Shown in pieces: positions 14,201 through 53,558 of a stretch of 62,510 nt of DNA; positions within the stretch are counted from its first letter, which is position 1, and the number at the start of each line of letters is the position of its first letter. The notes under the pieces are model-generated. The model was not told the DNA's origin. It saw only the letters and a program-made list of their open reading frames with translations, and made no database searches. The translations under genes were made by a program, and so were the position numbers. Where the stretch lies: positions 1-62,510 of the IMG/VR virus record IMGVR_UViG_3300025570_000014; one strand, written 5' to 3'. The DNA comes from a virus. Lineage: Duplodnaviria; Caudoviricetes.

Positions 14201-17200
14201 CAGAGGTACCTGATGAACCACTAATGCCTGATGAGCCTGAAGTACCTGATGAACCTGAGGAACCACTAGTACCTGAGGAACCTGATGAGCCTGAAATGCC
14301 TGAACTACCTGAAGTTCCTGAAGAACCTGAAACACCTGAGGTGCCTGAAGAACCTGAGCTGCCTGAAGTACCTGATGAACCTGATGTGCCTGAGGCCCCT
14401 GTCATACCTGATGAACCACTAGTACCTGAAGAGCCTGATGTACCCGAAGTACCTGAGGAGCCACTAATACCTATGGCGCCTGAGGTGCCTGAGGTGCCTG
14501 ATGAACCTGATGAACCTGAGGTGCCTGAGGAACCACTAATACCTGATGTGCCTGAAGAACCTGAAGTACCTGAGGCACCTGTCATACCTGAAGAACCTGA
14601 TGTGCCTGAAGAACCACTTATGCCTGAAGTACCTGATGAACCTGCAGCACCTGAAGTGCCTGATGAACCTGAGATACCTGATGTTCCTGAAGAACCTGAG
14701 ATACCCGATGTACCCGAAGAACCTGATGCTCCGGGGGCTCCCGCTAGGTTTATACACCATTGTTGAGAACCACTAAAAGTCCCTGTAGAAGAGGTAACTA
14801 TAATACTAATGCCCCCTGTTCCCGAATTATAGGACCCAACCGTTCCTTCAATTAGGTTATTAACATTACCTGGGGTAGCCAATATTATACTTTGTCCCGT
14901 TGTATAAGCTAATCCAATTCCTATAACAAGATTAAGGGTACCCGAAGCGGGGGAAGTGAGGGATTGGGTACTACAATTGGCGTATATGTCACCATCCTCA
15001 CCTGATGAACCCGAAGTACCCGAAGAACCACTAGTACCTGAAGAACCTGATGTACCTGAAGAACCTGATGTTCCTGAGGCACCTGTCATACCTGAAGAAC
15101 CTGATGTGCCTGAGGAACCTGAAGTACCTGATGAGCCAGCTGTACCTGAGGTACCAGATGAGCCTGATGTGCCTGAAGAGCCACTAGTACCTGAAGAACC
15201 ACTAGTGCCGGAAGAACCACTAGTACCTGAAGAGCCACTAGTACCTGAAGAGCCACTAGTACCTGAGGAACCCGAGATACCACTAGTGCCTGAGGAACCA
15301 CTAGTACCTGATGTACCTGAGGAACCACTAATACCCGATGTACCTGAAGAACCTGAAGTGCCAGATGAACCCGAAGTGCCTGAAGTTCCTGAAGAGCCAT
15401 TTATCCCAGAGGTGCCGGAAGAACCTGAGGTACCCGAAGATCCTGAAGTGCCAGATGAACCATCGATACCCGAAGTACCTGATGAACCTGATGTGCCCGA
15501 AGCCCCCGTCATTCCTGAGGAACCTGAGGTGCCTGATGATCCTGAAGAGCCGGCGGTGCCTGAGGTACCTGAAGAACCACTAGTACCTGAAGAACCTGAG
15601 GTACCTGAAGAACCATCTATACCTGAGGTACCTGATGATCCTGAAGAGCCGGAGGTGCCTGAGGTTCCTGAAGAACCACTAGTACCTGAAGAACCTGAGG
15701 CACCTGAAGAGCCTGATGTACCAGAGGTACCTGATGAACCACTAATGCCTGATGAGCCTGAAGTACCTGATGAACCTGATGTACCTGAAGAACCACTAGT
15801 GCCTGAAGAACCACTAGTACCTGCAGAACCGCTAGTACCTGAAGAGCCTGAAGTACCTGAAGTACCCGAAGAACCGTCTATACCTGAGGTACCCGACGAT
15901 CCTGATGAACCTGAGGTGCCTGAAGAACCTGATGTGCCTGAAGAACCACTAGTACCTGCCGAACCGCTAGTACCTGAAGAGCCTGAAGTACCTGATGCAC
16001 CCGTCATACCCGAAGAACCTGAAGTACCTGATGAACCTGCAGTACCTGAAGAGCCATCTATGCCTGAAGTGCCCGATGAACCTGAAGTGCCTGATGAACC
16101 ACTAATACCTGATGAACCACTAGTACCTGAAGTGCCTGATGAACCACTAGTACCTGATGTGCCTGATGAGCCACTAGTACCTGAAGAGCCACTGATGCCT
16201 GATGATCCCGATGTGCCTGAGCTACCTGAGGTGCCTGAGGAGCCTGAAAAACCTGAAGTGCCTGATGAGCCGGATGTACCTGATGTACCTGATGAGCCTG
16301 AAGAACCACTAGTACCTGAAGAACCTGAGGTACCTGAAGAGCCATCTATACCTGAAGTACCCGAAGAACCACTAGTACCTGAGGAACCATCTATACCTGA
16401 GGTGCCTGAGGAACCTGAGGAACCTGAGGTACCTGACGAACCTGATGAGCCTGATGAACCCGAGGTACCTGAGGCACCTGTCATACCTGAAGAACCTGAA
16501 GTACCTGATGAGCCTGATTCTCCAGATGTACCTGAAGTACCTGATGAACCTGATATTCCAGATGAACCTGAAGTACCTGATGAACCTGATGTGCCTGAAG
16601 AACCTGAAGAACCTGAAGTGCCTGAGGAACCGTCTATGCCTGAGGTACCTGAAGAACCTGAAGAACCTGAAGTACCAGATGAACCTGAAGTACCCGATGA
16701 ACCCGATATACCTGAAGTGCCCGATGAGCCTGAGGTGCCAGATGAGCCTGAGGAGCCAGATGTGCCCGAACTACCTGAAGTACCTGAAGAACCGGATGTA
16801 CCTGAAGCACCTGTCATACCTGATGAACCGCTAGTACCCGATGAACCCGATGATCCTGAAGTGCCTGAAGTGCCTGATGATCCTGCTGCTCCTGGAGCTC
16901 CCTCTAGGTTTATACACCATTGTAGAGAAGTAGGGGTAGGCCAATTCCCTGTTTGGGAAGTAATATCGATTTCTATATCCCCATTTGATGAGTTATATGA
17001 ATTAACTATTCCTACTATATACTGTGTGGCACTATATGCTAGTATTACAGTTTGACCTACTGTATATGCTAGTCCTGCGGCTATGTTTATATTAAGGGGG
17101 TCTCCAGGGGGATCGGTAATGGTTTGAGTGCTACAATCGGCATATATGTCACCATCTTCACCAGATGAACCCGAAGTGCCTGAAGTACCTGAAGTACCTG

Positions 17201-17645
17201 AGGAGCCTTCGGCACCCGATGATCCTGATGTACCTGATGAGCCGCTTCCTCCTCCTCCTGTTCCGTCATTATAATCTAATACAATACAAACTTCTTCCTC
17301 AGCATTTAATGGAAAATTACCAGATTGAGCACTAGCTCCTGCAGTTATTGTAAAAGATATATAATTAGTATTATCCGTTACAGCTGTGTAAGGAAAAACT
17401 GCGTAGTTAGCAGGATATTTTTTACTGTGTATTGTTAAATTACCTTTAGTACTATCTTTTAGGTAATCCGATATGTTAATATTATTAAGGTCCGATATGT
17501 TAATATCAACACGAGTTGTATTTCTAACATCTAAACTACTATAAAGACTTAATCTACCAGGGGAGGGGATTGTAGAGGGAGTTGAAACCTTGTAAGGTAT
17601 ACAAAATGCTCCTAAATCTCTATCTATAATAAATTTTTGTGCCAT
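8295..17645 (-). CDS. Giant Gly-X-Y (GSS/GTS) repeat fibre protein, 3116 aa, with four repeated ~90-aa spacer domains
   Basis: One open frame of 9.35 kb with globular N- and C-termini, Gly at every third residue in the repeat tracts, a late motif at 17665-17671, and a position downstream of the baseplate genes. Confidence 0.85.
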   Translation of the reverse strand: MAQKFIIDRDLGAFCIPYKVSTPSTIPSPGRLSLYSSLDVRNTTRVDINISDLNNINISDYLKDSTKGNLTIHSKKYPANYAVFPYTAVTDNTNYISFTITAGASAQSGNFPLNAEEEVCIVLDYNDGTGGGGSGSSGTSGSSGAEGSSGTSGTSGTSGSSGEDGDIYADCSTQTITDPPGDPLNINIAAGLAYTVGQTVILAYSATQYIVGIVNSYNSSNGDIEIDITSQTGNWPTPTSLQWCINLEGAPGAAGSSGTSGTSGSSGSSGTSGSSGMTGASGTSGSSGTSGSSGTSGSSGSSGTSGSSGTSGISGSSGTSGSSGTSGSSGSSGTSGIDGSSGTSGSSGSSGTSGSSGTSGSSGISGSSGTSGTSGESGSSGTSGSSGMTGASGTSGSSGSSGSSGTSGSSGSSGTSGIDGSSGTSGSSGTSGIDGSSGTSGSSGTSGSSGSSGTSGTSGSSGTSGFSGSSGTSGSSGTSGSSGISGSSGTSGSSGTSGTSGSSGTSGTSGSSGISGSSGTSGSSGTSGIDGSSGTAGSSGTSGSSGMTGASGTSGSSGTSGSAGTSGSSGTSGSSGTSGSSGSSGTSGIDGSSGTSGTSGSSGTSGSAGTSGSSGTSGSSGTSGSSGTSGSSGISGSSGTSGTSGSSGASGSSGTSGSSGTSGTSGSSGSSGTSGIDGSSGTSGSSGTSGSSGTSGTAGSSGSSGTSGSSGMTGASGTSGSSGTSGIDGSSGTSGSSGTSGSSGTSGINGSSGTSGTSGSSGTSGSSGTSGISGSSGTSGTSGSSGTSGISGSSGTSGSSGTSGSSGTSGSSGTSGSSGTSGSSGTSGSSGTSGTAGSSGTSGSSGTSGSSGMTGASGTSGSSGTSGSSGTSGSSGTSGSSGEDGDIYANCSTQSLTSPASGTLNLVIGIGLAYTTGQSIILATPGNVNNLIEGTVGSYNSGTGGISIIVTSSTGTFSGSQQWCINLAGAPGASGSSGTSGISGSSGTSGISGSSGTSGAAGSSGTSGISGSSGTSGSSGMTGASGTSGSSGTSGISGSSGTSGSSGSSGTSGTSGAIGISGSSGTSGTSGSSGTSGSSGMTGASGTSGSSGTSGSSGSSGTSGVSGSSGTSGSSGISGSSGSSGTSGSSGSSGTSGSSGISGSSGTSGTSGSSGTSGTSGSSGTSGSAGTSGSSGISGSSGTSGSSGMTGASGTSGSSGISGSSGTSGTSGSSGISGSSGTSGTSGSSGTSGSSGTSGSSGTSGSSGISGSSGTSGTSGSSGTSGSSGTSGSSGTSGSSGTSGTSGSSGFSGSSGTSGSSGTSGTSGSSGVSGSSGTSGSSGMTGASGTSGSSGTSGSSGTSGATGDSGSSGTSGSSGTSGSSGTSGIDGSSGTSGSSGTSGSSGTSGATGEDGSSGTSGSSGTSGSSGTSGATGESGSSGTSGSSGITGASGTSGSSGTSGSSGTSGSSGISGSSGTSGATGESGSSGTSGSSGMTGASGTSGSSGTSGSSGTSGSSGTSGIDGSSGTSGSSGTSGIDGSSGTSGSSGTSGSSGTSGTSGSSGISGSSGTSGSSGMTGASGTSGSSGTSGTAGSSGTSGISGSSGTSGSSGMTGASGTSGSSGTSGSSGTSGSSGTSGIDGSSGTSGTSGSSGAAGADGDVYADCANQTITSGTPPPSLTLTFATDLAYTAGQNVILAHSATQFIEGTVDSYTPNSGVIVLINLTYTGTFSGTIEWCLNLAGAPGASGSSGTSGTSGSSGTSGIDGSSGTSGSSGTSGSSGTSGSSGTSGINGSSGTSGSSGTSGSSGISGSSGTSGTSGISGSSGTSGSSGMTGASGTSGSSGTSGSSGTSGSSGTSGSSGTSGTSGVSGSSGTSGSSGTSGIDGSSGTSGAAGSSGTSGISGSSGTSGSSGMTGASGTSGSSGTSGSSGTSGSSGTSGSSGTSGSSGTSGTSGLSGSSGTSGSSGMTGASGTSGSSGTSGSSGTSGSSGTSGIDGSSGTSGSSGTSGIDGSSGTSGSSGTSGSSGATGESGSSGTSGSSGTSGSSGTSGSSGMTGASGTSGSSGTSGTAGSSGSSGTSGSSGTSGSSGTSGATGGSGSSGTSGSSGMAGASGTSGSSGTSGSSGTSGSSGTSGINGSSGTSGSSGTSGSSGTSGSSGTGGSSGTSGIDGSSGTSGSSGTSGSSGMTGASGTSGSSGTSGSSGTSGSSGSSGISGTSGSSGTSGSSGTSGSSGTSGTSGTSGSSGMTGASGTSGSSGTSGIDGSSGTSGTSGTSGSSGTSGSSGTSGSSGMTGASGTSGSSGTSGSSGTSGIDGSSGTSGSSGTSGSSGTSGSSGASGTDGDIYAACVNNLTISNPPSSPLTIAIGSGLAYTAGQNIILAIDSSNFIEGTVNNYNSGTGNIEINVTSSTGSWSSITSYTWCINLAGAPGASGSSGTSGSSGTSGTSGIDGSSGTSGSSGTSGSSGSSGTSGSSGMTGASGTSGSSGTSGSSGTSGSSGTSGSSGTSGLSGTSGSSGTSGIAGIDGSSGTSGSSGMTGASGTSGSSGTSGSSGSSGTSGTSGSSGTSGSSGTSGIDGSSGTSGSSGTSGIDGSSGTSGSSGTSGIDGSSGTSGSSGTSGIDGSSGTSGSSGTSGIDGSSGTSGSSGTSGIDGSSGTSGSSGTSGIDGTSGSSGSSGTDGSSGTSGSSGTSGIDGSSGTSGSSGTSGIDGSSGTSGSSGTSGIDGSSGTSGSSGTSGIDGSSGTSGSSGTSGIDGSSGTSGSSGTSGIDGSSGTSGSSGTSGISGSSGTSGSSGTSGSSGTSGSSGMTGASGTSGSSGTSGSSGTSGSSGTSGSSGTSGISGSSGTSGSSGTSGSSGMTGASGTSGSSGTSGSSGTSGSSGTSGSSGTSGTSITENWSILDSVPAGSVGNPGTDIFNTGLSFGTFDVVEFDGMVILKGNNSGTGTVADPFIRAGATLKFTGTLWAFLSKNYLYDFTITEVDGTFVSQSVTTEIAQTQLISIVATDPGNKTQGSYGPVGITGGGTGAQATVVIGNTGLATSIIVTDGGSGYSTTTAITIDGADIGGTTSTDDVVLNLTIPYLVPEYTKSRLNLEQIYIQAEDVDVTNNILRFKVYNTLDYSLFYKHSLTFRIFNDL
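9027..16886 (-). repeat. Degenerate 9-bp-unit coding repeat (Gly-Ser-Ser / Gly-Thr-Ser) in four tracts
   Basis: Tracts at about 9027-10406, 10680-12461, 12729-14726 and 14997-16886; plus-strand units such as cctgaagta, cctgatgaa and ccactagta. Confidence 0.95.
10407..17156 (-). repeat. Four copies of a ~90-aa domain (DGD(I/V)YA.C...LAYT.GQ..ILA...G.V..Y...WC(I/L)NL.GAPGA)
   Basis: Copies at 16887-17156, 14727-14996, 12462-12728 and 10407-10679. Confidence 0.9.
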
Positions 17646-31758: not shown

Positions 31759-33780
31759 TTATTGACCATTATCACCCGCATCTAAAATAGTCCACCCGTA
31801 AGTACCGGTAAGAGTGTTTCGTGCAGAACTTGCAATGGATCCTGAGTATTGGGTTAAATTAGCCTCAAGGGTTACATTAGATTGTATATTAGGAGCTTGG
31901 GCAGCCCATCCTATAAGAATATTACTATAGTTTTCGTCTGAAAGGTTAGGTACATTTCTAAACATTCTAGACATATTAGTTACACCACTTATATCCCAAC
32001 TTCCTAAATCTTGGTTAAATCCAGTTCCTGTAGGGGCACCAAATCCTGCTCTAAAAAACATATCTTGAAATGTAGTAGCGGCACTTGTGTTCCAATTAGA
32101 TATATCTTGATCAAAATCACGACAATCATAAAACATACTAGTAAAATTAGTAACATTAGATACATCCCAACTGCTAATATCTTGATCAAAAGCATCGGCA
32201 TTATAAAATACCCGTTGCATACTTGTTAAATTACTTACATCCCAACTTGATATATCCTGATTAAAAGATGTTGCATTAAAAAATATAGTATCTATAGTAG
32301 AAACATTACTAATAGAACTTGACCAACTTGTGAGGGGTTGATCAAAATTAGTACAACCATTAAACATTCCATAAAGAGAACCCCCAGAAATATTCCAATT
32401 ATCAATATTTTGGTTAAAGCTAGAACAATTTTCAAACATTTCAAAAAATGTAGTTCCGCTAGAAACATCCCAAGTTGTAACATTTCCATTAAAAGCAGTG
32501 GCACCTGTAAAAACTTCAGTAAAATTAGTAATGTTACTCACATCCCACCCTGAAAGGCTTTGGTTAAATGATGTAGCTCCTTGGAACATTCTACGCATAG
32601 AAGTAGCAGTAGAACTTAAAGTCCAATTACCTATGGGTTGGTTAAATACGGGGGCGAAATTAAACATAAATTCATAGGTTGACGCGCTACTGACATCCCA
32701 ATTTGATATATCAGCATTGAATATAGGATTTTCTTGAATAAATCTTAGGAAATCTGTAACATTACTCACATCCCATAAAGAAACATCAGGATTGAATGAT
32801 ATTCCTGCAAACATGTAACTCATAGCTGTTAAAGAACCCACATCCCAACTACTAATATCTTGATTGAATGAGGAGGCATTTAGGAACATGGACCTCATAT
32901 CCGTTACACTACTTACATCCCAACCTGAAATATCCTGGTTAAATGAAGTAGCTCCGTTGAACATCGCATTCATTCTAGTTATTAAACTTGTATTAAAATT
33001 TACAATCTCGGGATTATTATAAACAGTATTTCCGGCAAATAGTGAGTTAAATGAAGTTACATTACTAATGTCCCAATTAGATATAGATCCTGTAAATTGG
33101 GTATCTTGAAATACTCCCTCCATTGCGTATGGGGGTGAAGTACTTGAAAGTCCTATGGTAGCATGAAAATTAATATTTGGGTTGTCAGATCCTTGTGCAA
33201 ATTGTCTAAAGTCTCCTGTTATAGGGCTCCCAGAAGTACCCCAAGAAGTAAAATCACCTACAAGAGAATTATTATTTATAAAGGTTTGATAATTACCACC
33301 TCGAGGAATATCTTTAGATCCAAAATTAGGAACATCCGTAGCAGTCATATACCAGTTTTCACAATTTTGAAAAATTTTATCAGAAAGATATATTTTTACA
33401 GGACCCCAAGATTTTACATTTATTAATTTAAGCCTATCATTAGCAGCAGTTGCTGTACTGCCATCTTGGGCTGCCCATGAAATATGGTCAACCCCATTAG
33501 AAATATTTTCAGAAATAATGATATCATATATCCCAACAGAATTATACGTGTGAACAACTTCAGATTGATTCCAAGAAGTGATATTATCAGAGGTACCATC
33601 ACCCCAAGAAACACTAAAATCATAAGTTCCTGTAGATATTGTGGGAAGTCTATATTGAAATATTGTGGTACTTCCAACTTCAGTATTTCTAGTATCTATA
33701 GTAAAATTAAAAGGTAAAACATTTGTTGATGTTCTTGGATAAGCGGCAGCAGATAATTCAAAAAGAAAAGCCATTATCAA
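31759..33780 (-). CDS. DUF285 / BspA-type repeat surface protein with an N-terminal PKD-like strand
   Basis: More than a dozen ~25-aa repeats of FNQDISSWDVS.VT.M..MF; VSWGDGT...HTY..G.Y motif. Confidence 0.85.
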   Translation of the reverse strand: MIMAFLFELSAAAYPRTSTNVLPFNFTIDTRNTEVGSTTIFQYRLPTISTGTYDFSVSWGDGTSDNITSWNQSEVVHTYNSVGIYDIIISENISNGVDHISWAAQDGSTATAANDRLKLINVKSWGPVKIYLSDKIFQNCENWYMTATDVPNFGSKDIPRGGNYQTFINNNSLVGDFTSWGTSGSPITGDFRQFAQGSDNPNINFHATIGLSSTSPPYAMEGVFQDTQFTGSISNWDISNVTSFNSLFAGNTVYNNPEIVNFNTSLITRMNAMFNGATSFNQDISGWDVSSVTDMRSMFLNASSFNQDISSWDVGSLTAMSYMFAGISFNPDVSLWDVSNVTDFLRFIQENPIFNADISNWDVSSASTYEFMFNFAPVFNQPIGNWTLSSTATSMRRMFQGATSFNQSLSGWDVSNITNFTEVFTGATAFNGNVTTWDVSSGTTFFEMFENCSSFNQNIDNWNISGGSLYGMFNGCTNFDQPLTSWSSSISNVSTIDTIFFNATSFNQDISSWDVSNLTSMQRVFYNADAFDQDISSWDVSNVTNFTSMFYDCRDFDQDISNWNTSAATTFQDMFFRAGFGAPTGTGFNQDLGSWDISGVTNMSRMFRNVPNLSDENYSNILIGWAAQAPNIQSNVTLEANLTQYSGSIASSARNTLTGTYGWTILDAGDNGQ

Positions 33781-36537: not shown

Positions 36538-38934
36538 TTATCCTAATGAAATTTTTAAGTTAACTCCATCTCTCCATACTTGGCCTATAAATTCGGGGTC
36601 TGATGTGGGTAAGCTTTGAGCATCTAAGAATATTGAAGCCGTATTGATTACTACAATATTTTTTCTACTTCCATCGTTAGTACCATTACTTACAATAAAT
36701 AAAGCTTCATCGATTTTTCCTATCCCATCAGCATCACCGAATTTTGTAAATTTACCTACCGCAGTTGAGTAATCCCTTTGGGCAATTGTATTATCACCTG
36801 TAGAAAATGAACCGGTACCTTGGGCTCTTGATCCAGAACCTGCTGCAAATGAGTAAGAACCATTTGCTAGAGTTGTGAATCCTTGAGCATGTGATGATTC
36901 TCCTATAGCTAGTGTAAGGGTACCTTCAGCATGGGAAAAATCACCTGAGGCGGATGTGAAAGATCCTTCGGTATGGGATCCCCTTCCAAAGGCAAATGTA
37001 TCGTACCCTTCAGCATGGGTAAATGATCCTGTTGCATGGGTGTTATAACCTCCAGCATGAGATCCCCTCCCTGAGGCAAGTGTGGCTTCGCCTTCAGTAT
37101 GAGAGAATTGACCTGATGCTGTAGTTAGGTAACCTTCAGCGTGAGAGTAGTTCCCTAAAGTTTGGGTTTCACGGCCCTCAGTGTGGGAGTAAACTCCATT
37201 AGTTTTTGTAGTGCGTCCTTCAGCATGAGATCCTTCAGCCCCCGCTACGGTTCCATTTCCTTCAGCATGTGAATATCCTGCTTGTGTTATAGTATCATAT
37301 CCTTGTGCATGGGAGTATAAACCTCCAACAATGTTAAATTGGCCTTGAGCTAAACTTCCTGTGATAACTACAGTTCGGGAAGAAGTAACATTTAAATTAT
37401 CAGCGGTTATATACCAATCAGTATCTTCCCCTCCACTCCCCCCAGAAGAATATGAACCTGTATATTCGAATTGACCTGTTGTAGGATCATATACTACAAC
37501 ATTAGTACCACTACTATTAGTATCTTCAGGGATAGCGGCATATAAAGCACCACTAGCTGAGATGAGAGATGCTGTAAGGTCGTTTTTAAATTCAATGCCA
37601 TTAGAATTAAATAAAGCTAAGTCACTTCTAGCTCCATCGCTAACACCGTTTCCTATAATCATTAAGGAAGTAGTATTATCATGGGTATTATATTTACCTT
37701 GAACGTGTTGAGCTGACCCCGATGCTATGGTATAAAATCCTTCAGCATGAGAGGAAACTCCTAGTGCTATAGTTCCAAATCCTTCGGTATGAGATGTAGC
37801 CCCATATGCTATAGTTAAGTAACCTTCAGCATGGGAAGCTTCACCACTTGCTATAGTTTCTTTACCTTCGGAATGCTGTCCTCCTCCTGATGAGCCTGTG
37901 GTTAGAGTATTTAGACCTTCAGCATGTGAATAAAATGCAGAAGCTGTGCTATATGATCCTTCAGCGTGGGCATAAGCACCAAATCCATATACTGTAGGGC
38001 CTAAGACTGCATCCGTAGAAGGATTAGTTGTTGTGTGATGTCCTTCAGCATGAGAGTAGTATCCTGCTATTGTTTGGAATCCTGTAGTTAGAGAGTTAGA
38101 TCCTGAGATTTTACTTTGGTAACCTAAGTTAGCAAAAGAAGAAAAAGAAGATGTTCCGTTATTGTACATCCATATTTGATCGTTTCCTGAAGCAAGGGCA
38201 CCCAAAAAGGTTTCATCTGCAAAGGGACTTAAGGGAAAGATACCTCCCCCTGATCCTGTTTCTCCTGCTCCCAGCACAAGGTCTCCTAAAGATAAAATGC
38301 CTGGGGAATTAGATTTAACTATAATAGATCCTGTTACTTCGATACTCCCAGAAGGAATATGAAGATTTCCATAAAGTGTGTTAGTACTAGAAGAACCACT
38401 TAAACCTATTAAAACTTGAGAGCCTGTAAGGTCTAATAAAAGGTTTGATCCTATAGATGTATAAATTCTATCTGGGCCTAGTCTGAAGTAGCTAGTATCA
38501 ACCCCTTCAGAAAATATTGCTTGAGTTGTAATCCATGAACCCGAATTAATTCCCCCTTTTGATCCTGTAGAAGCGGATTTACCTTCTTTTATTGAGTCTA
38601 ACTCCGCTTTAGTAAAAGAAGATATATTTGACCCCGATACAAAATTTATAGATCCATCGGATACATAAATTTCGCTCCATGCCGAGTTAGGTCCCCCTAA
38701 ACTAAAAGAAGAAACGGTTTCACCCGGTGCGGTATTGGGTATTATACTACTTGAGATATAAATAGTGCCTGAGATAAATTGGCTTCCTGTTGGGGAAGAG
38801 CCTGTGTTTCCAGTTTGGGCCTCTATTATATCATATAAGGTGTTAACTGAGGTTTTGGTTTCGTTAAATATAGATGCACTAACCTCACTGTTAGATCCAG
38901 AGTCTGCTCTATTAGCCCATTCAATTTTTGCCAT
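36538..38934 (-). CDS. Adhesin-like fibre with 14-aa SH(A/T)EG repeats (YadA-head / Hep_Hag-like)
   Basis: Two blocks of SHAEG-x9 repeats, each followed by a G...L.I(I/V).NG..DG.R cap. Confidence 0.75.
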   Translation of the reverse strand: MAKIEWANRADSGSNSEVSASIFNETKTSVNTLYDIIEAQTGNTGSSPTGSQFISGTIYISSSIIPNTAPGETVSSFSLGGPNSAWSEIYVSDGSINFVSGSNISSFTKAELDSIKEGKSASTGSKGGINSGSWITTQAIFSEGVDTSYFRLGPDRIYTSIGSNLLLDLTGSQVLIGLSGSSSTNTLYGNLHIPSGSIEVTGSIIVKSNSPGILSLGDLVLGAGETGSGGGIFPLSPFADETFLGALASGNDQIWMYNNGTSSFSSFANLGYQSKISGSNSLTTGFQTIAGYYSHAEGHHTTTNPSTDAVLGPTVYGFGAYAHAEGSYSTASAFYSHAEGLNTLTTGSSGGGQHSEGKETIASGEASHAEGYLTIAYGATSHTEGFGTIALGVSSHAEGFYTIASGSAQHVQGKYNTHDNTTSLMIIGNGVSDGARSDLALFNSNGIEFKNDLTASLISASGALYAAIPEDTNSSGTNVVVYDPTTGQFEYTGSYSSGGSGGEDTDWYITADNLNVTSSRTVVITGSLAQGQFNIVGGLYSHAQGYDTITQAGYSHAEGNGTVAGAEGSHAEGRTTKTNGVYSHTEGRETQTLGNYSHAEGYLTTASGQFSHTEGEATLASGRGSHAGGYNTHATGSFTHAEGYDTFAFGRGSHTEGSFTSASGDFSHAEGTLTLAIGESSHAQGFTTLANGSYSFAAGSGSRAQGTGSFSTGDNTIAQRDYSTAVGKFTKFGDADGIGKIDEALFIVSNGTNDGSRKNIVVINTASIFLDAQSLPTSDPEFIGQVWRDGVNLKISLG

Positions 38935-38958
38935 GTTAAGTCGATTTATTTATAAATA

Positions 38959-39657
38959 TTAGAAAATGGGGTTATCTTCATAATAATCACGTAAATCTTC
39001 TACAATTTCATTGCGGTGGTTAGATTGGAGTGTAATAGCTTCAAGATTTTTAATTTTTCGTGATGCTTTGTAAAGATATTTAAATCCAGAGTCTGATTTT
39101 TTCTTTAAATCTGTTTGGTGAGCATCACCACATACCATCATTTTGGACCTTAAACCCAGACGTGTTGTAATCATTTCCATTTGATCGTGGGTTACATTTT
39201 GAGCTTCATCTACAATAACACATGCATCTAAAAATGTTCTACCTCTCATAAATGAAACAGGTACAATTTCTATTTTACCATCTGCTATAAGTTTTTCGAT
39301 TTTAGCCTTATCATATAACATAAATAAATTTTGATAAATAGGTTGCACCCAGGGGTCCATTTTTTCTCTTAAATCACCTGGGAGGAAACCGATTTCTTCT
39401 TTACTTACTGTAGGACGAGTAATAATGATTTTGGTGTAGATTCTTCTAAGTAAACCATCTAAAGCTACTTGACAAGCTAATAGGGTTTTACCTGATCCTG
39501 CTTGACCCGCTAATAGTGTAATTGTGTTGTCTAGTATTAGTTGTTTTGCTTCTTTCTGTTCATCGTTTAATTGTATTTTAAACTTTATAGGGTTTTTTGC
39601 TACTTTTTTTTCTCTAAAAATTTCTTTAGCTTCTTCGGTCGTATTGAAATGGGTCAT
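38959..39657 (-). CDS. phoH: PhoH-like ATPase
   Basis: GQAGSGKT, IITRP, IGFLPGDLREKMDPW, FMRGRTF, VDEAQN, TRLG, GD..QTD. Confidence 0.95.
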   Translation of the reverse strand: MTHFNTTEEAKEIFREKKVAKNPIKFKIQLNDEQKEAKQLILDNTITLLAGQAGSGKTLLACQVALDGLLRRIYTKIIITRPTVSKEEIGFLPGDLREKMDPWVQPIYQNLFMLYDKAKIEKLIADGKIEIVPVSFMRGRTFLDACVIVDEAQNVTHDQMEMITTRLGLRSKMMVCGDAHQTDLKKKSDSGFKYLYKASRKIKNLEAITLQSNHRNEIVEDLRDYYEDNPIF

Positions 39658-40375
39658 TATTAAAGTTAATTTTAACTAGTTTATCTAATCCGGCGTTTAC
39701 ATGCATTTCATTCTCTAAAACAAGGTCAAAGTTAAATCTATCATCCAGTGGTAAAACTAGGTCAACTTGTGAGCCCCATCTTATAAGTGAAAAACGTTCA
39801 TTTTGTGATACAGGTGAATTCTGGTCATTAATGAAGGGAGCTATAACATTTACGTCCTCGTCTGCTATTTGGACTAAGTAATAAGTATAATCTAATTGTG
39901 GAGAGTAAATTTTATTCCACATTCTTTCATTATACTTAAGATATTCTAAATTATTAGGGTTAATAGCAGCATTTAAAATATCTTTTTCTATAGCTAACAT
40001 AGGTTTGTTAGTAGATTCTATAGGATCTAAACCTTTATATTGTAATATACCAGGGTAGGGTATTCTATTTATATGAACATCATAAAATGACATAAATATG
40101 CCAATTACAAGAGAAGGTTTATCGTAAGTTTTATCCCCAAGTACATCTTGAATTGTATAATTCATACCCTTAATTTCTACTATAGGGTCAGTAGCGTTTT
40201 GAACTACCTTTTGATATAAAATTGTTCCGTCGGCTGGGGAGTAAAAGTGTCTGTGGTCTACATAGTTAGGGCGCATTGGGTCTCTAAAAAAGAAAGTATT
40301 TGATAATTCACCTACTTCCAATTTTGATAATTCTGCAACCTCCCCCTCTAACCAGTCTTCTAAATATTGAGCCAT
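39626..40375 (-). CDS. Phosphatidylserine-decarboxylase-like pyruvoyl enzyme
   Basis: SPADG (Asp), FMSFYDVHINRIP (His) and WGSQV (GS self-cleavage site); no membrane anchor visible. Confidence 0.8.
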   Translation of the reverse strand: MAQYLEDWLEGEVAELSKLEVGELSNTFFFRDPMRPNYVDHRHFYSPADGTILYQKVVQNATDPIVEIKGMNYTIQDVLGDKTYDKPSLVIGIFMSFYDVHINRIPYPGILQYKGLDPIESTNKPMLAIEKDILNAAINPNNLEYLKYNERMWNKIYSPQLDYTYYLVQIADEDVNVIAPFINDQNSPVSQNERFSLIRWGSQVDLVLPLDDRFNFDLVLENEMHVNAGLDKLVKINFNNDPFQYDRRS

Positions 40376-41301
40376 TATAGGAGGGATTTATCGTAATCTA
40401 CATAATTCAAATGCATTATCATACAGCTTAACATAGCTCCTGACTTCATGTATTCTGAGATATTGAAAAATACTGGTTCGAGTCCTTCGTTAAAGCAGAT
40501 TTTTTCTAAGCTTTCAATTTTATGTTTTTCTGCTTCATAATTTTCATCTGCTCTAGTCATTTCAGAAATATTTGAAGCACATAAAATTGTGTTGCCCAAA
40601 CGTACTGAATTTGCCATTCCGTTAAGGGCGTCGTCACCTTCTATGTTTATTACGTCAGTATATTGTGATAATTCAGCTAATTCAACATCATCATATAGTT
40701 CCGTGCAAACCAATGTTTTTTCTTTAGTTAACGGGAAAATAGAACAATCTAAGTGGTATAGATATTCATCAACCATCTCAAGTTTAATGATTTTCATACC
40801 AAATTCTTTTTCCATCCATTCATAGGCTTGAATATCTGAGCGCATTCCATAACCCCCTACATAAACATTGTCATAGAGATATTTTAAATCTGCTTCACCT
40901 TCCCATTTAAAGGGACACATATGAACTTTATAACCCATGGATTCAAAAAATGGTTTTCCAACTTCTTCTTCCCCTTGTCGAGGTTCAGAAGTAAAGTTTG
41001 CCATAATAATATTATTTGAATCTTTAATATGAGGTAAATAAATACCTAAATTTGCTACATATACCAAATCTTGGAAATCTCCATCAGCGGGTAGTACATA
41101 AGCTAAGCTATTGCCTGCTACAAATTGATATAAATCTAAAAATTGACGATAAGCAGTTCCTTTATTTATTTTAAGTGCTTCTTCTTCCATTTCTTGCATC
41201 CAAATATTATTGGGGTTTGCAGTAGATAATGTGAAGGGAAAATTCATAACGAATGCCGGTATAGGCAGTTGTGAGGGGGTCTCTTTCATTTTATATAACA
41301 T
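40375..41301 (-). CDS. Amidinotransferase / DDAH / arginine-dihydrolase-family (pentein) enzyme
   Basis: DLVYVAN, WEGEAD, YHLDC and C-terminal KSGAMLSCM (catalytic Cys). Confidence 0.85.
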   Translation of the reverse strand: MLYKMKETPSQLPIPAFVMNFPFTLSTANPNNIWMQEMEEEALKINKGTAYRQFLDLYQFVAGNSLAYVLPADGDFQDLVYVANLGIYLPHIKDSNNIIMANFTSEPRQGEEEVGKPFFESMGYKVHMCPFKWEGEADLKYLYDNVYVGGYGMRSDIQAYEWMEKEFGMKIIKLEMVDEYLYHLDCSIFPLTKEKTLVCTELYDDVELAELSQYTDVINIEGDDALNGMANSVRLGNTILCASNISEMTRADENYEAEKHKIESLEKICFNEGLEPVFFNISEYMKSGAMLSCMIMHLNYVDYDKSLL

Positions 41302-41341
41302 TTTTAATTACGTGTATACATATAGTATACTACTAGAGAAT

Positions 41342-41368
41342 AAAAAAGCCCCGCATAAGCGGGGCTTT
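41342..41368 (-). terminator. Intrinsic terminator after the major capsid gene
   Basis: AAAGCCCCGC-UUAU-GCGGGGCUUU followed by a U run. Confidence 0.9.
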
Positions 41369-41392
41369 CTCTTAGTATATTCTAAAGTCTAA

Positions 41393-43030
41393 TTAGAGGG
41401 TATTCAAACCGTTCACATAGATCTTAGCATAGTATTCAGGTCTTAACATCTTCTTAGCATAGCGAGTCAAGAGGCCTTTACGTGGAGTGAAGGTCTGTGG
41501 ATCGTATACAAGAGGAGTCATGATCAATGGAATATAAGGAGCAAAAGTAGCACCTGTTTCCAAGAACTGAGAACCTCTAAATCCTAATAGGATAGTGTTT
41601 TCAGTCATATATGGGTTCTTATAAACATCAAACTTGGTGTTTAAGTTACCTACTTTTTGGATACCAAACGCGTAGTTCATAGTATCAGCATCCGCTCCAT
41701 CTGTAGCAGCAAATCCTGGGATTGATTCCAAGATAGTACCGATTGTTGGAGAACATACCATAAAGTTAGCGCCTCCTCTCAAAGTTAACTGGTGGATCTT
41801 GTTAGATACCTTGTTTAACTTAGTACCTAGAGTTTGGAACCATTGGCCTTGAGTATTATAGAAAGTACCATTGTTGGTTTCACCATTAGCATCAAATGTT
41901 TCATTGTTCCTAGCTGACCAGTAGTCAGTAGTAAGAGCATTTTCAATTAACATACCTAGGATCTCCAAATCAATTTCAAGAGCAATGTACTCACTCATGA
42001 TGCTTGTCAATTCAGCTTCAGCATCCAAAGAATGGTAAGCGTTCAAATCTTGAGCAAATTCTGGAGTCCATACAGCCTTAAGTTTCTTAGTCTTAGCAAC
42101 GATTGCTTCAGACTTCATCTTAATGTTGATTTCTGGGATATCGATCGGGTTGTTATTTCCGTTCAAAGTGGTGTTACCATCTTCGAAATCACCTCTTCGG
42201 TTATCCTGTGGTGCCTGTACATAAGTGATAGTAAAGGCAGTTGGGTCAGTGGCACCCGCGGTACCTTGAACGTATAAAACAATATCATTAGCACTTCCTG
42301 AGGCATAATTGTATTGAGGAATATTAACTCCAACACTAGTACCGTCTACAACGAATCCTCTAACACCATCAAGGTCTGGGAAGGCGAATGATGATGAGTT
42401 GAATACTAGTCTCTTTAAGGTACTAGCAGTTCCTGCAATAGAAGCAGATAACGCTGAGTCGAATCCAACTTCGGCCCATGAGGCTGAGCTGATACTCGCA
42501 GCGGTTGCAATTGGGCCTGATGAAGTTACATTGGTAGAGTAAGTCCACTTACCTGCACCGTATAAACCATCAGTAGGGGCACCCTCAGTGTTAGTAACAC
42601 CATACATAGAGCCTGCACCAAATACATCACCACCTACATTGAATTTAGAACCAGACTTAGCTGTTCCATATTGAAAATCGAGGAAGAAAACAAGTCCTGA
42701 AGGTAAGCTCATAGGTTGAACACTTACGAAATCTTTCGCAGCAATCATACCGAATACTTTTCTTACCAAAGGAAGAGCAACTCCTGCCCATTGTTCACCT
42801 GTTCCAGGAGTAAATGAAGCACCTGCTACACCACCACCAGTTTGTGAAGATTCAACAACAAGCTGTTTAGCTTGGTTTTCGAGAATCAAAGCCATATTGT
42901 TTTTGTCAGTCTCACTATTGAGTCCTTCTAACAATCCTGTCTGATTCCATTTGTTAGCTAATCTAGCGGAGTCCGATTGGACGTTTTTCCACTGATTTGC
43001 GCTCTCTAAAAGAGAATTTAAATTTGACAT
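41393..43030 (-). CDS. gp23: Major capsid protein (T4 gp23-like)
   Basis: LENQAKQL, VSVQPMSLPSGLVFFLDF, KLKAVWTPEFAQDLNAYHSLDAEAEL, APYIPL, FTPRKGLLTRY. Confidence 0.97.
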   Translation of the reverse strand: MSNLNSLLESANQWKNVQSDSARLANKWNQTGLLEGLNSETDKNNMALILENQAKQLVVESSQTGGGVAGASFTPGTGEQWAGVALPLVRKVFGMIAAKDFVSVQPMSLPSGLVFFLDFQYGTAKSGSKFNVGGDVFGAGSMYGVTNTEGAPTDGLYGAGKWTYSTNVTSSGPIATAASISSASWAEVGFDSALSASIAGTASTLKRLVFNSSSFAFPDLDGVRGFVVDGTSVGVNIPQYNYASGSANDIVLYVQGTAGATDPTAFTITYVQAPQDNRRGDFEDGNTTLNGNNNPIDIPEINIKMKSEAIVAKTKKLKAVWTPEFAQDLNAYHSLDAEAELTSIMSEYIALEIDLEILGMLIENALTTDYWSARNNETFDANGETNNGTFYNTQGQWFQTLGTKLNKVSNKIHQLTLRGGANFMVCSPTIGTILESIPGFAATDGADADTMNYAFGIQKVGNLNTKFDVYKNPYMTENTILLGFRGSQFLETGATFAPYIPLIMTPLVYDPQTFTPRKGLLTRYAKKMLRPEYYAKIYVNGLNTL

Positions 43031-51405: not shown

Positions 51406-51927
51406 TTAATATTTAATAGTTTTTAAAACCTGGTTAATGCGTTCTTCAGTTGTTCCACTAATAGTATAAAAGACAGGACGATGTTTAGATAAAAGTTTTT
51501 GAATAGTTTTATCAATTTCATTTCTATATTCAATATTTGTTTCACGTACCCCATTATCTTCAATATCTAGTCCCTCTGGGGAGATATAGAATATGTAATC
51601 GTATTGGTAAAGGAAGCGCTTAGCATATGTTTCAAAGGCATCAGCATCTATATAACTCGTATAAGTAGCACAATTAGTAAAAGCCATTACATCAAGAATC
51701 GTTCTATCAGTAACAATTTTTTCTTGCATTAATTCAGTAACACGTTCTGCTAAAAATATAGTTTGCCCTTCAATAGTAGTTTTATGATTCAATGGTATCC
51801 CCAATGAATTAAGATATTTACTACGTTCTGTTGCAAATTTATAACCCTTAAATTCAGGTAATTCTTTCAACGCATTTACAAGCGTTGTTTTACCTACTGA
51901 CATTGTTCCACAAAAACCTATTTTCAT
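51406..51927 (-). CDS. P-loop nucleotide-kinase-like protein (AAA_28 / NadR-type)
   Basis: GTMSVGKTT, TDRTILD, YDYIFY, EDNGVRE. Confidence 0.8.
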   Translation of the reverse strand: MKIGFCGTMSVGKTTLVNALKELPEFKGYKFATERSKYLNSLGIPLNHKTTIEGQTIFLAERVTELMQEKIVTDRTILDVMAFTNCATYTSYIDADAFETYAKRFLYQYDYIFYISPEGLDIEDNGVRETNIEYRNEIDKTIQKLLSKHRPVFYTISGTTEERINQVLKTIKY

Positions 51928-51928
51928 T

Positions 51929-52186
51929 TTAACCAGCGTTTCGGGTTGATTCTCTCATTGCAGGATTCTTGTACCAAGGTACACCATTCTTTTCTCTTTT
52001 AACTTCCTTCCATTCATCTTCAGTATGGTAGATACCGTAAATATAATATTCCCTTTGCCGGTAAACACCCTTACGTATAAGAGCAGGCCCTTCCCAATTA
52101 TGTAATTTACCATCCCAATGGTGTACTATAGTTCCATCAGGAGTTTTAGTTCGTTTTGGCTTAGGCCATTTGTTATTTTGTTCCAT
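51929..52186 (-). CDS. Hypothetical protein with GKLHNWEGPALI motif
   Basis: One copy of a G.LH...GPA.I...EYY..G unit. Confidence 0.7.
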   Translation of the reverse strand: MEQNNKWPKPKRTKTPDGTIVHHWDGKLHNWEGPALIRKGVYRQREYYIYGIYHTEDEWKEVKREKNGVPWYKNPAMRESTRNAG

Positions 52187-53558
52187 TTTCTTTTAATATT
52201 TGTTCTGCTACTAATGTACCCTGTGCTCCTGATACTGTTATACCTCTAGCACTTAATGCATCTCCTACAAAATGTACATTAGGGTATGTAGTTAAACTTA
52301 AATCCTCATAGTTTACAAGTGGTTCAGGTGAAAGGTACTTAACTTCAGGTACATAAATTCCCCAATCATCTCCAAGTGTTGGGAATACTTTTTTCATATC
52401 CCCAATAAAGTCTTCAATATATTTAAAATATCCTTTAAATGCGTCTCTTACTTCTTGAAGACCTGATTCACCAATGTAATGTGCTTTAACCCAATCACCT
52501 TCAGATGTAAGTGTTTTATCTTTACCTGCAGGACTATAATAAAGACCTGCTTGATACTTTATTTGGAAACGACCTAGTGCTTTTTGACCACTCCCTCCTT
52601 CATTAGATACAATAGTATTCCTTTGTACTTTAGAAACTAACTCACGTGACCAATCAAATGGTTTATCAATACCTTTAACTTCCATTAAGATACCAAAATT
52701 AGTCATATTGTTTCTATGTTCTTCTCCTTTTTTAGCATGACCATTGTAGCTATAATCACCATATGTTTCTTCTAGGGCCACATAAGCTGCATTGTTATTA
52801 GTGCAGAATGAACGAAGTGATACACCTTCATCTTCAAACTTACGATACAATTTAAAATCATAACTTACATCAATTAGTTTTTGGAAGTGTTTTTGTGGTG
52901 CTTCAAATCTAACACCAATTTGTACTGGTTTTGATTCCGTTGGTAATTCATATTGTTCAGCTAATTTTTTACCAAAGTCAATTCCAGATTTACCTACACC
53001 AAAAATGAGTTTATCATATCCTACCCAATCATTATCTTCTGTACTTTTATCAGTGTGGAGTTGTTGAGCATCAAAATCAATTGATGTTACCTTAGTTTTC
53101 CAAATAAATTTAACACCTTTATCACAAAGAAAATCATACCAATTTTTACCAATTTCATGCAAGTAATCTGTACCAACGTGCCATACAGGAAATAAACGGA
53201 GTCCAAAATATGGTTTAATAAAATCAGGTTCTGCTACAGGATTAGAACATTGTACTTCTTCTGGCTTAGGGTGGAAGCGTTTAAAGTTGGTAATTACCTG
53301 ATCCATTAACTCCATTGCTTTTTCATCGCCCGTATACTTAGTTAAATGACCACCTATTGAAGTATGGTATGTAAGTTTACCATCACTCCACCCACCAGCA
53401 CCCATAAACCCTGTCATTACTTCTTCAGGTTTCCTATTGTACGGATCATTACCCATATCAATAATTGTGATACAACTTCCATCGTATCCATTATCTACTA
53501 ATTTAGTTGCAGCATTAACACCTGCCACACCGGCTCCAATTATTACTATTTTTTCCAT
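52173..53558 (-). CDS. FAD-dependent oxidoreductase (probable start MEKIV at 53558)
   Basis: IIGAGVAG, GFMGAGGWSDGKL, IGVRFE, RSFCTN, NGHA, TNFGIL, VGDA...RGI. Confidence 0.85.
   Translation of the reverse strand: MEKIVIIGAGVAGVNAATKLVDNGYDGSCITIIDMGNDPYNRKPEEVMTGFMGAGGWSDGKLTYHTSIGGHLTKYTGDEKAMELMDQVITNFKRFHPKPEEVQCSNPVAEPDFIKPYFGLRLFPVWHVGTDYLHEIGKNWYDFLCDKGVKFIWKTKVTSIDFDAQQLHTDKSTEDNDWVGYDKLIFGVGKSGIDFGKKLAEQYELPTESKPVQIGVRFEAPQKHFQKLIDVSYDFKLYRKFEDEGVSLRSFCTNNNAAYVALEETYGDYSYNGHAKKGEEHRNNMTNFGILMEVKGIDKPFDWSRELVSKVQRNTIVSNEGGSGQKALGRFQIKYQAGLYYSPAGKDKTLTSEGDWVKAHYIGESGLQEVRDAFKGYFKYIEDFIGDMKKVFPTLGDDWGIYVPEVKYLSPEPLVNYEDLSLTTYPNVHFVGDALSARGITVSGAQGTLVAEQILKENGTK

Follow-up and report, generated by a model that had tools for sequence, protein, structure and literature searches.

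What do two enzymes of small-molecule metabolism do directly behind the major capsid gene of a T4-like phage? The question is raised by an operon of three overlapping genes in the IMG/VR virus record IMGVR_UViG_3300025570_000014, whose entire length of 62.5 kb (62,510 nucleotides, nt; estimated to be 42% complete) we refer to as the window. The operon encodes a pentein-fold hydrolase, a protein resembling phosphatidylserine decarboxylase (PSD) and a PhoH-like ATPase (Table 1). An initial annotation of the window had proposed that the first two enzymes form a route from arginine through ornithine to putrescine. Our analysis supports that interpretation in part, and it is the reading best supported by the kinship of the pentein to the arginine dihydrolase ArgZ, by the linkage of the two genes across phages and bacteria, and by a cyanobacterial locus (L117) in which an unrelated decarboxylase takes the place of the PSD-like gene. 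We hold it tentatively, with slightly less than even confidence: the pair may be a mobile, late-expressed two-enzyme module that converts arginine to ornithine (or citrulline) and then to putrescine (or N-carbamoylputrescine).

The first enzyme could be placed only by combining several kinds of search. A Pfam scan of the window pentein returned no match, and its NCBIfam matches to arginine dihydrolase (1.9e-23), dimethylargininase (3.9e-23) and a bifunctional ArgZ model were all far below the respective cut-offs. As a single query against solved structures, the sequence found only ArgZ (Sll1336) and AgrE (Alr4995), with a best E-value of 5e-18; a profile built from 25 members found six ArgZ/AgrE sequences (best 2.4e-28) and, at E <= 0.001, nothing beyond them, neither a dimethylarginine dimethylaminohydrolase (DDAH) nor an amidinotransferase. 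Foldseek searches with the AlphaFold2 model (pLDDT 93.3) also ranked ArgZ/AgrE best, at 3.4e-21 with TM scores of 0.80 (query length) and 0.88 (target length) and a root-mean-square deviation of 2.4. DDAH came next at 7.7e-13, and amidinotransferases, agmatine deiminase and AstB followed at about 1e-10 to 1e-11. Relatives of this pentein are abundant in public metagenomes, where 1968 clusters were found (90% identity, E <= 0.001).

The catalytic residues that had been judged intact from the sequence proved to be so on alignment. The Cys-His-Glu triad of the pentein fold is present as C293, H183 and E134, corresponding to C264, H168 and E118 of AgrE, and D78, N84, R108, R154 and D185 correspond to AgrE D65, N71, R90, R139 and D170. 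All but one of these eight residues are the same in every sequence of the 25-member alignment; the exception, E134, is kept in 24 members and replaced by Asp in one. N84, present in 25 of 25, aligns with the column at which the chain of PDB entry 6juz departs from wild type (TANAG versus TASAG), an entry entitled 'ArgZ(N71S) covalently bond to a reaction intermediate'. Going by that title, we take an asparagine at the N71 position to be needed to finish the second hydrolysis. In the DDAH family, two arginines and an aspartate hold the amino-acid end of the substrate, the arginine pair binding its alpha-carboxylate, and a guanidino-binding aspartate stands where ArgZ has asparagine. The equivalence of R108 and R154 to this carboxylate-binding pair argues for an amino-acid substrate rather than agmatine. 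We therefore take the pentein to be most likely an ArgZ-like hydrolase that acts on a free amino acid of the arginine type.

The second enzyme falls in the PSD family of Pfam, with a PF02666 match of 1.9e-24 (86.9 bits against a gathering cut-off of 22), and it scored far below the cut-offs of all 15 NCBIfam equivalog models for PSD and archaetidylserine decarboxylase (best 71 bits against 183). Its AlphaFold2 model (pLDDT 93.7) matched E. coli PSD at 6.5e-7, the tryptophan decarboxylase PsiD at 3.1e-4 and the arginine decarboxylase Ao-ADC1 at 1.3e-3. A sequence profile searched against solved structures ranked E. coli PSD (1.2e-12) and PsiD (3.5e-3) in the same order and did not detect Ao-ADC1 at E <= 1. 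That enzymes of this fold can act on free amino acids, a premise of the original proposal, is thus borne out among the fold matches themselves. The Asp-His-Ser set is intact as D49, H101 and G201-S202, the last within the sequence IRWGSQVD, and the PADG and His motifs align with those of E. coli PSD. Among 74 aligned members, H101, G201 and S202 are each found in all 74 and D49 in 64. The WGSQ motif had been singled out as replacing the usual (L/F)GST; it is indeed present, but it is no peculiarity of this gene, since [WFY]GSQ is the norm of the family (W, F or Y in 57/74, Q in 56/74). Self-cleavage would presumably occur at Gly201/Ser202 and form the pyruvoyl cofactor.

An exhaustive search of 1.84 billion representatives identified 614 relatives of the PSD-like protein at E <= 0.001, 98 of them at E <= 1e-30, and public metagenomes contained 2388 clusters (90% identity, E <= 0.001). 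The 83 near-full-length representatives inspected are about 220-320 amino acids (aa) long and nearly all carry an N-terminal 'MA..L..W' helix, FFRDP, PADG and I/V-R-[WFY]-G-S-Q-[VC]-D-L. The window protein has no hydrophobic segment (maximum Kyte-Doolittle score 0.95 over 19 residues) and its N-terminus is acidic, by a crude test that leaves room for peripheral membrane binding. Two Streptomyces genomes that carry the pair hold a canonical PSD elsewhere (about 152 bits, against 86-94 bits for the copy in the pair), so the PSD-like gene of the pair is not the housekeeping PSD. Judged on its sequence and predicted structure, the protein adopts the PSD fold and is very unlikely to be a lipid PSD. 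Three complex-prediction runs with the pentein and the PSD-like protein scored 0.56, 0.21 and 0.19 against a mark of 0.32, which speaks neither for nor against a complex.

Some members of the PSD-like family are fused to other domains. None of the 10 long proteins checked was fused to a pentein. The partners seen were an intein with LAGLIDADG, Acb1, ADP-ribosyltransferase with ParB/VapB-like parts, GMC oxidoreductase, methyltransferase and ATP-grasp; proteins P0243, P0388, P0246 and P0248 comprise two intein-interrupted forms (LAGLIDADG), one fusion to the anti-CBASS protein Acb1 and one to VapB-like and ADP-ribosyltransferase parts. Each fusion is a single cluster on a short contig and may be a gene-calling read-through, and we draw no inference from them.

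The genes of the two enzymes travel together. We examined the 80 IMG/VR loci with a PSD-like gene 74-98% identical to that of the window. The pentein gene lies directly upstream in 78 of them, and the other two contigs begin inside or at the PSD-like gene; PhoH lies downstream in 79, the remaining contig ending 70 nt past the PSD-like gene; and a capsid match is present in 73, the seven without one beginning within the pentein or PSD-like gene. All four genes are near full length in 61 loci, and in every one of these the pentein was more conserved than the capsid protein, with median identities of 58% for the capsid protein, 69% for the pentein and 78% for the PSD-like protein. The PSD-like gene also exceeds the capsid gene in conservation in all 61, a figure biased by the choice of loci on PSD similarity. 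Scans of viral contigs with three distant PSD-like representatives (P0335, P0306 and P0270) yielded no confirmed relative.

Cultured phages extend this linkage beyond the clade of the window. The pentein was found in 47 records, made up of 40 Campylobacter phages, 6 Bacteroides phages and one distant Xanthomonas DDAH-like match (21% identity); the PSD-like gene was found in 45. Bacteroides phage DAC19 carries the two genes side by side (DAC19_243/244), and DAC20/22 have matches at corresponding positions. No Campylobacter record above 135 kb was among the pentein and PSD-like records examined; Firehammervirus genomes are over 135 kb in size. The pair conservation that the initial annotation had asked to be checked is thus broad. 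Unlinking in relatives, which it had named as grounds for abandoning its proposal, was seen only in the Campylobacter Fletchervirus phages, where the two genes still co-occur.

In DAC19 the pair sits inside a nucleotide-metabolism block (L001:6273-12869) that also includes two dUTPase/dCTP-deaminase-like genes and the gene of a 324-aa protein with an IMPDH/GMP-reductase domain (PF00478, 2.9e-27), the last of these lying two genes away from the pair. Fletchervirus DNA reportedly contains deoxyinosine in place of deoxyguanosine, and the GMP-reductase-like enzyme could matter if DAC19 makes the same replacement. Contigs binned with Bacteroidota metagenome-assembled genomes (MAGs) also show phage-like arrangements. 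Two contigs of low guanine-plus-cytosine (GC) content, L094 and L124, have the capsid-pentein arrangement, L094 showing the start of a PSD-like gene and L124 ending within the pentein; in a third contig, L126, the gene ahead of the pair is fibre-like and not a capsid match. The labels of these MAG contigs are Flavobacteriales and Saprospiraceae. There is a weak hint here that the window's phage infects aquatic Bacteroidota. DNA sequencing runs containing the stretch are labelled as freshwater, aquatic, marine sediment and sponge metagenomes.

The pair is also found on bacterial chromosomes. A scan with the pentein alignment of one genome per prokaryote species returned 34 genome or MAG loci, with GC contents of 0.32-0.71 and named hosts that include Streptomyces, Gemmatimonadota, Caulobacteraceae (on a 1.66-Mb contig), Verrucomicrobia and Acidobacteria. 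Among these loci, some MAG contigs of low GC also have a capsid gene and are evidently phage. A PSD-like match (in one case a fragment only) accompanies the pentein in 28 of the 34; the PSD-like gene comes first in 23 of these, and the remaining 5 are arranged as in the phage. The six without it comprise two cut at the contig end, three of a divergent subgroup (41-43% identity) and L117. The pair is rare: of 151 genomes sampled in the actinobacterial family of one Streptomyces carrier, 2 have the pentein. In one Streptomyces locus (L107; G006:C4:193686-195370) two PSD-like paralogues stand back to back on opposite strands beside the pentein, flanked by two DegT-aminotransferase/GT2 fusion proteins.

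The neighbours of the bacterial pair suggest the nature of its product. Clustering of neighbouring genes identified a MATE transporter in 14 loci, and in 12 of these it comes immediately after the pair and on its strand; an MsbA-like ABC exporter directly follows the pair in three further loci, and L126 has a weak MatE match right after the pair. The recurrence of an exporter in this position argues that the end product is a small molecule leaving the cell. L117, from Dulcicalothrix desertica PCC 7102, is more specific. Its pentein, 49% identical to that of the phage, is followed by a pyridoxal phosphate (PLP)-dependent decarboxylase of the ornithine/arginine/diaminopimelate (DAP) type, an agmatine-deiminase-like gene and an ABC-2 exporter, and its genome has no PF02666 match. 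An unrelated decarboxylase of basic amino acids thus stands where the PSD-like gene would be expected, an argument that the PSD-like enzyme fulfils a comparable function. Two further loci give fainter hints of polyamine metabolism: in L097 a PotD-like polyamine-binding protein is encoded 3.3 kb from the pair, and in L120 the pair is followed by three GNAT acetyltransferases.

In the window itself, all large ORFs are on the minus strand, and a T4-like myovirus structural module is encoded (gp23 capsid, gp20 portal, T4-type terminase, prohead protease and tail sheath). The three ORFs behind the capsid gene, their overlaps and the capsid terminator were all confirmed as first described. The pentein stop and PSD-like start have one base in common (TAATG), and the overlap between the PSD-like ORF and PhoH is 32 nt. 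Because relatives of the pentein are 304 aa long and begin MKETPS, corresponding to the second ATG, we consider this the likelier start. The PhoH match is full length (209.9 bits against a Pfam gathering cut-off of 27), with the Walker A sequence GQAGSGKT in the translation. The claim that PhoH belongs to the operon held for the phage clade of the window and failed elsewhere: PhoH is a clade-specific passenger that lies outside the module in other settings.

Table 1. Features of the operon behind the capsid gene, in order of transcription (window positions).
Feature	Coordinates	Strand	Evidence
gp23-type major capsid protein gene, directly upstream of the operon	41393..43030	-	PF07068 3.4e-72; phrog_138 3.6e-65
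Rho-independent terminator hairpin 3' of the capsid gene	41342..41371	-	GC-rich 13-bp stem, 4-nt loop, T-run
Late-promoter-like motif TATATGTATA, 26 nt before the likely start codon 41289	41315..41324	-	Variant of window motif ATATTTATAAC
Pentein hydrolase, most likely ArgZ-like	40375..41301 (308 aa); likely start 41289 (304 aa)	-	NCBIfam, PDB sequence, Foldseek
Soluble PSD-fold, presumably pyruvoyl-dependent decarboxylase	39626..40375 (249 aa)	-	PF02666; predicted self-cleavage G201/S202
PhoH-like P-loop ATPase, last gene of the operon	38959..39657 (232 aa)	-	PF02562 3.8e-62; phrog_170 7.7e-68
Late motif ATATTTATAA in its canonical form, across the PhoH stop codon, at the promoter of the following gene (798-aa YadA-head-like fibre)	38950..38959	-	Sequence and motif scan

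Whether the operon is transcribed apart from the capsid gene depends on the short stretch between them. The capsid hairpin was unflagged by a simple consensus terminator scan and was confirmed by folding (-23.2 kcal/mol, z = -6.2), with 0 of 200 shuffles folding equally well. A GC-rich hairpin occupies the same place in most of 21 relatives inspected and is not visible in L028 and L041. The variant late motif reported earlier, TATGTAT, is exact at 41316-41322 (minus strand), where it forms the core of TATATGTATAC (41314-41324), two changes from the window motif ATATTTATAAC. This window motif stands 10-30 nt ahead of many genes, for example those ending at 17645, 22942, 26717, 28750 and 31407, and the form ATATTTATRAC occurs five times in the window, where chance would give 0.32, and always on the minus strand. 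Ahead of the pentein in the same 21 relatives, 16 have TATATTTATA or a close variant and 5 have TATATGTATA. As terminator and motif are both kept in relatives, we conclude that pentein, PSD-like gene and PhoH form their own late transcription unit. Metatranscriptome contigs identical to the window (two runs from two studies) cover PhoH, the PSD-like gene and the pentein, and pieces of the capsid gene are present in all four RNA runs; these are at most a weak hint of transcription, being assembled contigs from libraries that may contain DNA, whose depth cannot rank genes and whose gaps in coverage carry no meaning.

Taken together, these features lead us to infer the following substrates and order of steps. 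The pentein would strip the guanidino carbon and nitrogens from free L-arginine, yielding ornithine, two NH3 and CO2, or citrulline if it carries out the first step only. The PSD-fold enzyme would then decarboxylate ornithine to putrescine, or citrulline to N-carbamoylputrescine. Bacteria would export the product through the MATE or ABC exporter. In the phage, the lack of an exporter and the operon's own late promoter behind the capsid gene imply that the product would build up during head filling, where it could serve as a counter-ion for DNA or as a polyamine supply, the release of ammonia being a side benefit. A more ambitious form of the proposal is possible but doubtful: that an ArgZ-type dihydrolase followed by a PSD-fold pyruvoyl ornithine decarboxylase constitutes an unrecognised putrescine route, carried as a mobile cassette, followed in soil and aquatic bacteria by a dedicated MATE or ABC exporter, captured by three or more lineages of large myoviruses (the aquatic T4-like phages, the DAC phages of Bacteroides and the Fletchervirus phages of Campylobacter), and wired to a late promoter in aquatic phages to supply counter-ions for packaging.

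Several observations weigh against a route from arginine to putrescine. The pentein did not reach the cut-off of the arginine dihydrolase model NF052232 (83.1 bits against 450; 77.7 bits for a bacterial relative), and at 23% identity to ArgZ, far under that cut-off, a changed substrate is quite possible. The roles given to R108, R154 and the asparagine are in part carried over from related enzymes. For the second step, we found no precedent for PSD-fold ornithine or citrulline decarboxylases, and the PLP enzyme of L117 is nearest to DAP decarboxylase, at 135 bits and below the cut-off. Linkage also has exceptions: the pentein relatives L121, L122, L125 and L129 form a subgroup without a PSD-like neighbour, and in Fletchervirus phages such as NCTC12673 the two genes (gp044 and gp085) lie about 43 kb apart. 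The reading leaves unexplained why bacteria would export putrescine so made. Finally, S-adenosylmethionine decarboxylase (AdoMetDC; speD) was found in none of four long relatives, and a Pfam scan of 150 of the 166 ORFs of the complete 170-kb relative G001, which lacks AdoMetDC, listed no spermidine synthase; the pathway would therefore stop at the diamine.

Among the alternatives, an unlikely one gives the two enzymes other, related substrates: the pentein would act on, for example, methylated or otherwise substituted arginine, as DDAH does, and the decarboxylase on another amino acid such as Asp, Ser, Lys or diaminobutyrate, giving a small amine other than putrescine. The pentein scores equally on the dimethylargininase and arginine dihydrolase models, its relatives carry the Pfam family PF19420 (DDAH_eukar) and the JGI name dimethylarginine dimethylaminohydrolase, and sequence alone fixes the substrate of neither enzyme. 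DDAH is nevertheless a clearly poorer fold match than ArgZ and went undetected by the pentein profile at E <= 0.001, and the pentein has the ArgZ-type asparagine at the position of the guanidino-binding aspartate of DDAH.

We consider it quite unlikely that the steps run in reverse, with a PSD-fold arginine decarboxylase making agmatine and the pentein acting as an agmatine deiminase or dihydrolase to give N-carbamoylputrescine or putrescine. Agmatine deiminases are penteins, the C. jejuni enzyme matches the fold at 1.3e-10, and the L117 cluster includes an agmatine-deiminase-like gene. In addition, a review confirms Ao-ADC1 as a PSD-family pyruvoyl enzyme that decarboxylates free arginine (PMC12904898). 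That enzyme matches the phage protein by fold and escapes its sequence profile, however, and the pentein is far nearer to ArgZ (3.4e-21) than to agmatine deiminase. The pentein also retains R108, R154 and D78, at the positions where ArgZ/DDAH-type enzymes bind the amino-acid end of their substrate.

It is similarly improbable that the pentein is an amidinotransferase, moving the amidino group of arginine onto an amine made by the decarboxylase (putrescine, cadaverine or similar) to produce a guanidino-amine (agmatine, arcaine or homoagmatine type) that is then exported. A dedicated exporter beside a rare and patchily distributed pair would suit a secreted specialised metabolite, and SxtG, HsvA and AGAT are among the fold matches (1.2e-11 to 5.2e-10, TM 0.55-0.69). 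The ArgZ/AgrE hydrolases match ten orders of magnitude better by fold and by sequence, however; the pentein is compact like the N-terminal domain of ArgZ and DDAH, whereas the amidinotransferase matches are about 360 aa; and the ArgZ-type asparagine is invariant. GenBank records of Campylobacter phages do label the pentein an amidinotransferase, a label that derives from a broad family name with no assay behind it.

A true lipid PSD, converting phosphatidylserine to phosphatidylethanolamine and remodelling the host membrane beside a functionally unrelated pentein, is very improbable. PF02666 membership and the rank of E. coli PSD as the best solved match would fit it, and an ocean survey of auxiliary metabolic genes (AMGs) treats viral psd as a lipid gene under membrane lipid metabolism (PMC11360552). 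Against it stand the lack of an apparent hydrophobic or amphipathic membrane anchor, the scores far below every PSD and archaetidylserine decarboxylase equivalog, the almost constant pairing with a pentein in either gene order, the separate canonical PSD of the Streptomyces genomes and the case of L117, where a PLP amino-acid decarboxylase stands in for the PSD-like gene and the genome lacks any PF02666 match. Equally improbable is a role in DNA or nucleotide modification, in which the pair would shorten an amino-acid adduct carried by a base or have as its target a guanidino group derived from guanine: although all three pair-carrying phage groups have genes replacing or altering guanine (FolE, QueD, QueE-like and QueC in G001, a marine phage, the IMPDH/GMP-reductase-domain gene of DAC19 and, in Fletchervirus, the deoxyinosine reported to stand in for deoxyguanosine), these systems differ among the groups, the bacterial pair adjoins small-molecule exporters with no DNA-modification genes nearby, and the available text of a 7-deazaguanine survey, whose supplementary tables might list these genes, does not mention them (PMC10516641). 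7-Deazaguanine DNA as the principal explanation was dropped, the bacterial loci having no Que genes, the guanine-related genes differing among the three phage groups, and no Campylobacter record of Firehammervirus size standing among those examined.

Literature searches found no published description of the pair, which may be listed in the supplements of PMC10516641, PMC11360552 and PMC9992855. Phage-encoded polyamine enzymes are known and include AdoMetDC-derived pyruvoyl arginine and ornithine decarboxylases, PLP ornithine decarboxylase and arginase (Li et al. 2023 PNAS, PMC9992855); the words dihydrolase, amidinotransferase and Campylobacter do not appear in the main text of that study. From its sequence relationships, the pair is probably a variant on this theme of phage polyamine and arginine auxiliary genes, a conserved, mobile and mis-annotated module for an arginine-derived amine. 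Were the arginine-to-putrescine route correct, its abundance in aquatic viromes would make it a major viral auxiliary pathway hidden by current labels ('psd', a lipid gene, for the decarboxylase, and 'DDAH' or 'amidinotransferase' for the pentein); polyamine biosynthesis would gain a new combination of folds, and a widespread annotation would be corrected. It would also offer a testable link between late phage expression and the supply of counter-ions for DNA packaging, and point to an unexplained bacterial operon, the pair plus an exporter, that secretes an arginine-derived amine. Cultured systems exist in the Bacteroides thetaiotaomicron phages DAC19-23.

Other genes of the window and its complete relative were noted in passing. 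Just upstream of the window terminase (51406-53558, minus strand) lie the genes of two proteins, one AAA_28/deoxynucleoside-kinase-like (173 aa) and one resembling an FAD/pyridine-nucleotide-disulphide oxidoreductase (461 aa). A corresponding pair of AAA_28 and Pyr_redox_2 genes, separated by two short ORFs of which one is a cupin, occurs in G001 (L091:13484-16024). A 3116-aa ORF (8295-17645, minus) consists almost wholly of collagen triple-helix repeats (PF01391, 18 stretches) and accounts for a jump in GC content to 0.48-0.50 in a window otherwise at 0.31-0.37. Also on the minus strand are a 767-aa fused GT4 and GT9 glycosyltransferase (2288-4591), a 671-aa DUF285 (BspA-like) repeat protein (31759-33774) and the 798-aa fibre-like protein that follows the operon, with a YadA-head repeat match (36538-38934; PF05658). 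In G001, FolE, QueD, a radical-SAM QueE-like enzyme and QueC (L085-L093) suggest 7-deazaguanine DNA; this phage also encodes a RuBisCO-large-chain-like protein, GroEL/GroES, a SET-domain protein and a sugar-modifying block of glycosyltransferases, DegT aminotransferases, a PglD-like gene, a sulfotransferase and a HAD-nucleotidyltransferase.

Comparison with known systems shows how the operon departs from each of them. The window motif ATATTTATAAC differs from the T4 late box TATAAATA. PhoH is ordinary in kind among the PhoH-like ATPases of marine phages, its position as third gene being kept only within the clade of the window. The phage enzymes that make diamines from arginine or ornithine (PMC9992855) embody the same idea, some of them being pyruvoyl-dependent, but they use the AdoMetDC fold and a manganese arginase where the window pair has a PSD fold and a candidate pentein dihydrolase. 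With PSD and archaetidylserine decarboxylase (PF02666; E. coli PSD 6l06, 7cnw) the phage protein shares its fold, the PADG and His motifs and the invariant Gly-Ser cleavage motif; it differs in forming a family of its own, of about 240 aa, with a conserved acidic N-terminal helix and no membrane segment, almost always partnered with a pentein. Ao-ADC1 (Aspergillus oryzae, acting on Arg; 9jer) and PsiD (Psilocybe, acting on Trp; 8x4q) are likewise soluble PSD-fold pyruvoyl enzymes of free amino acids, but are eukaryotic, larger (about 350-480 aa) and equipped with extra N-terminal domains, and their sequence likeness to the phage protein is marginal (PsiD) or undetected (Ao-ADC1). The N-terminal domain of ArgZ/AgrE (6juy, 6jv0, 6lrf) has the same alpha/beta-propeller pentein fold, the triad, the N71 asparagine and the two arginines with an aspartate, and is likewise coupled to a second enzyme that could take ornithine. 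In ArgZ/AgrE, which are cyanobacterial, that enzyme is a fused ornithine cyclodeaminase or LOR/SDH-type domain, whereas the phage-type pentein stands alone, has a separate PSD-fold decarboxylase as its partner, and occurs also in phages and in non-cyanobacterial bacteria.

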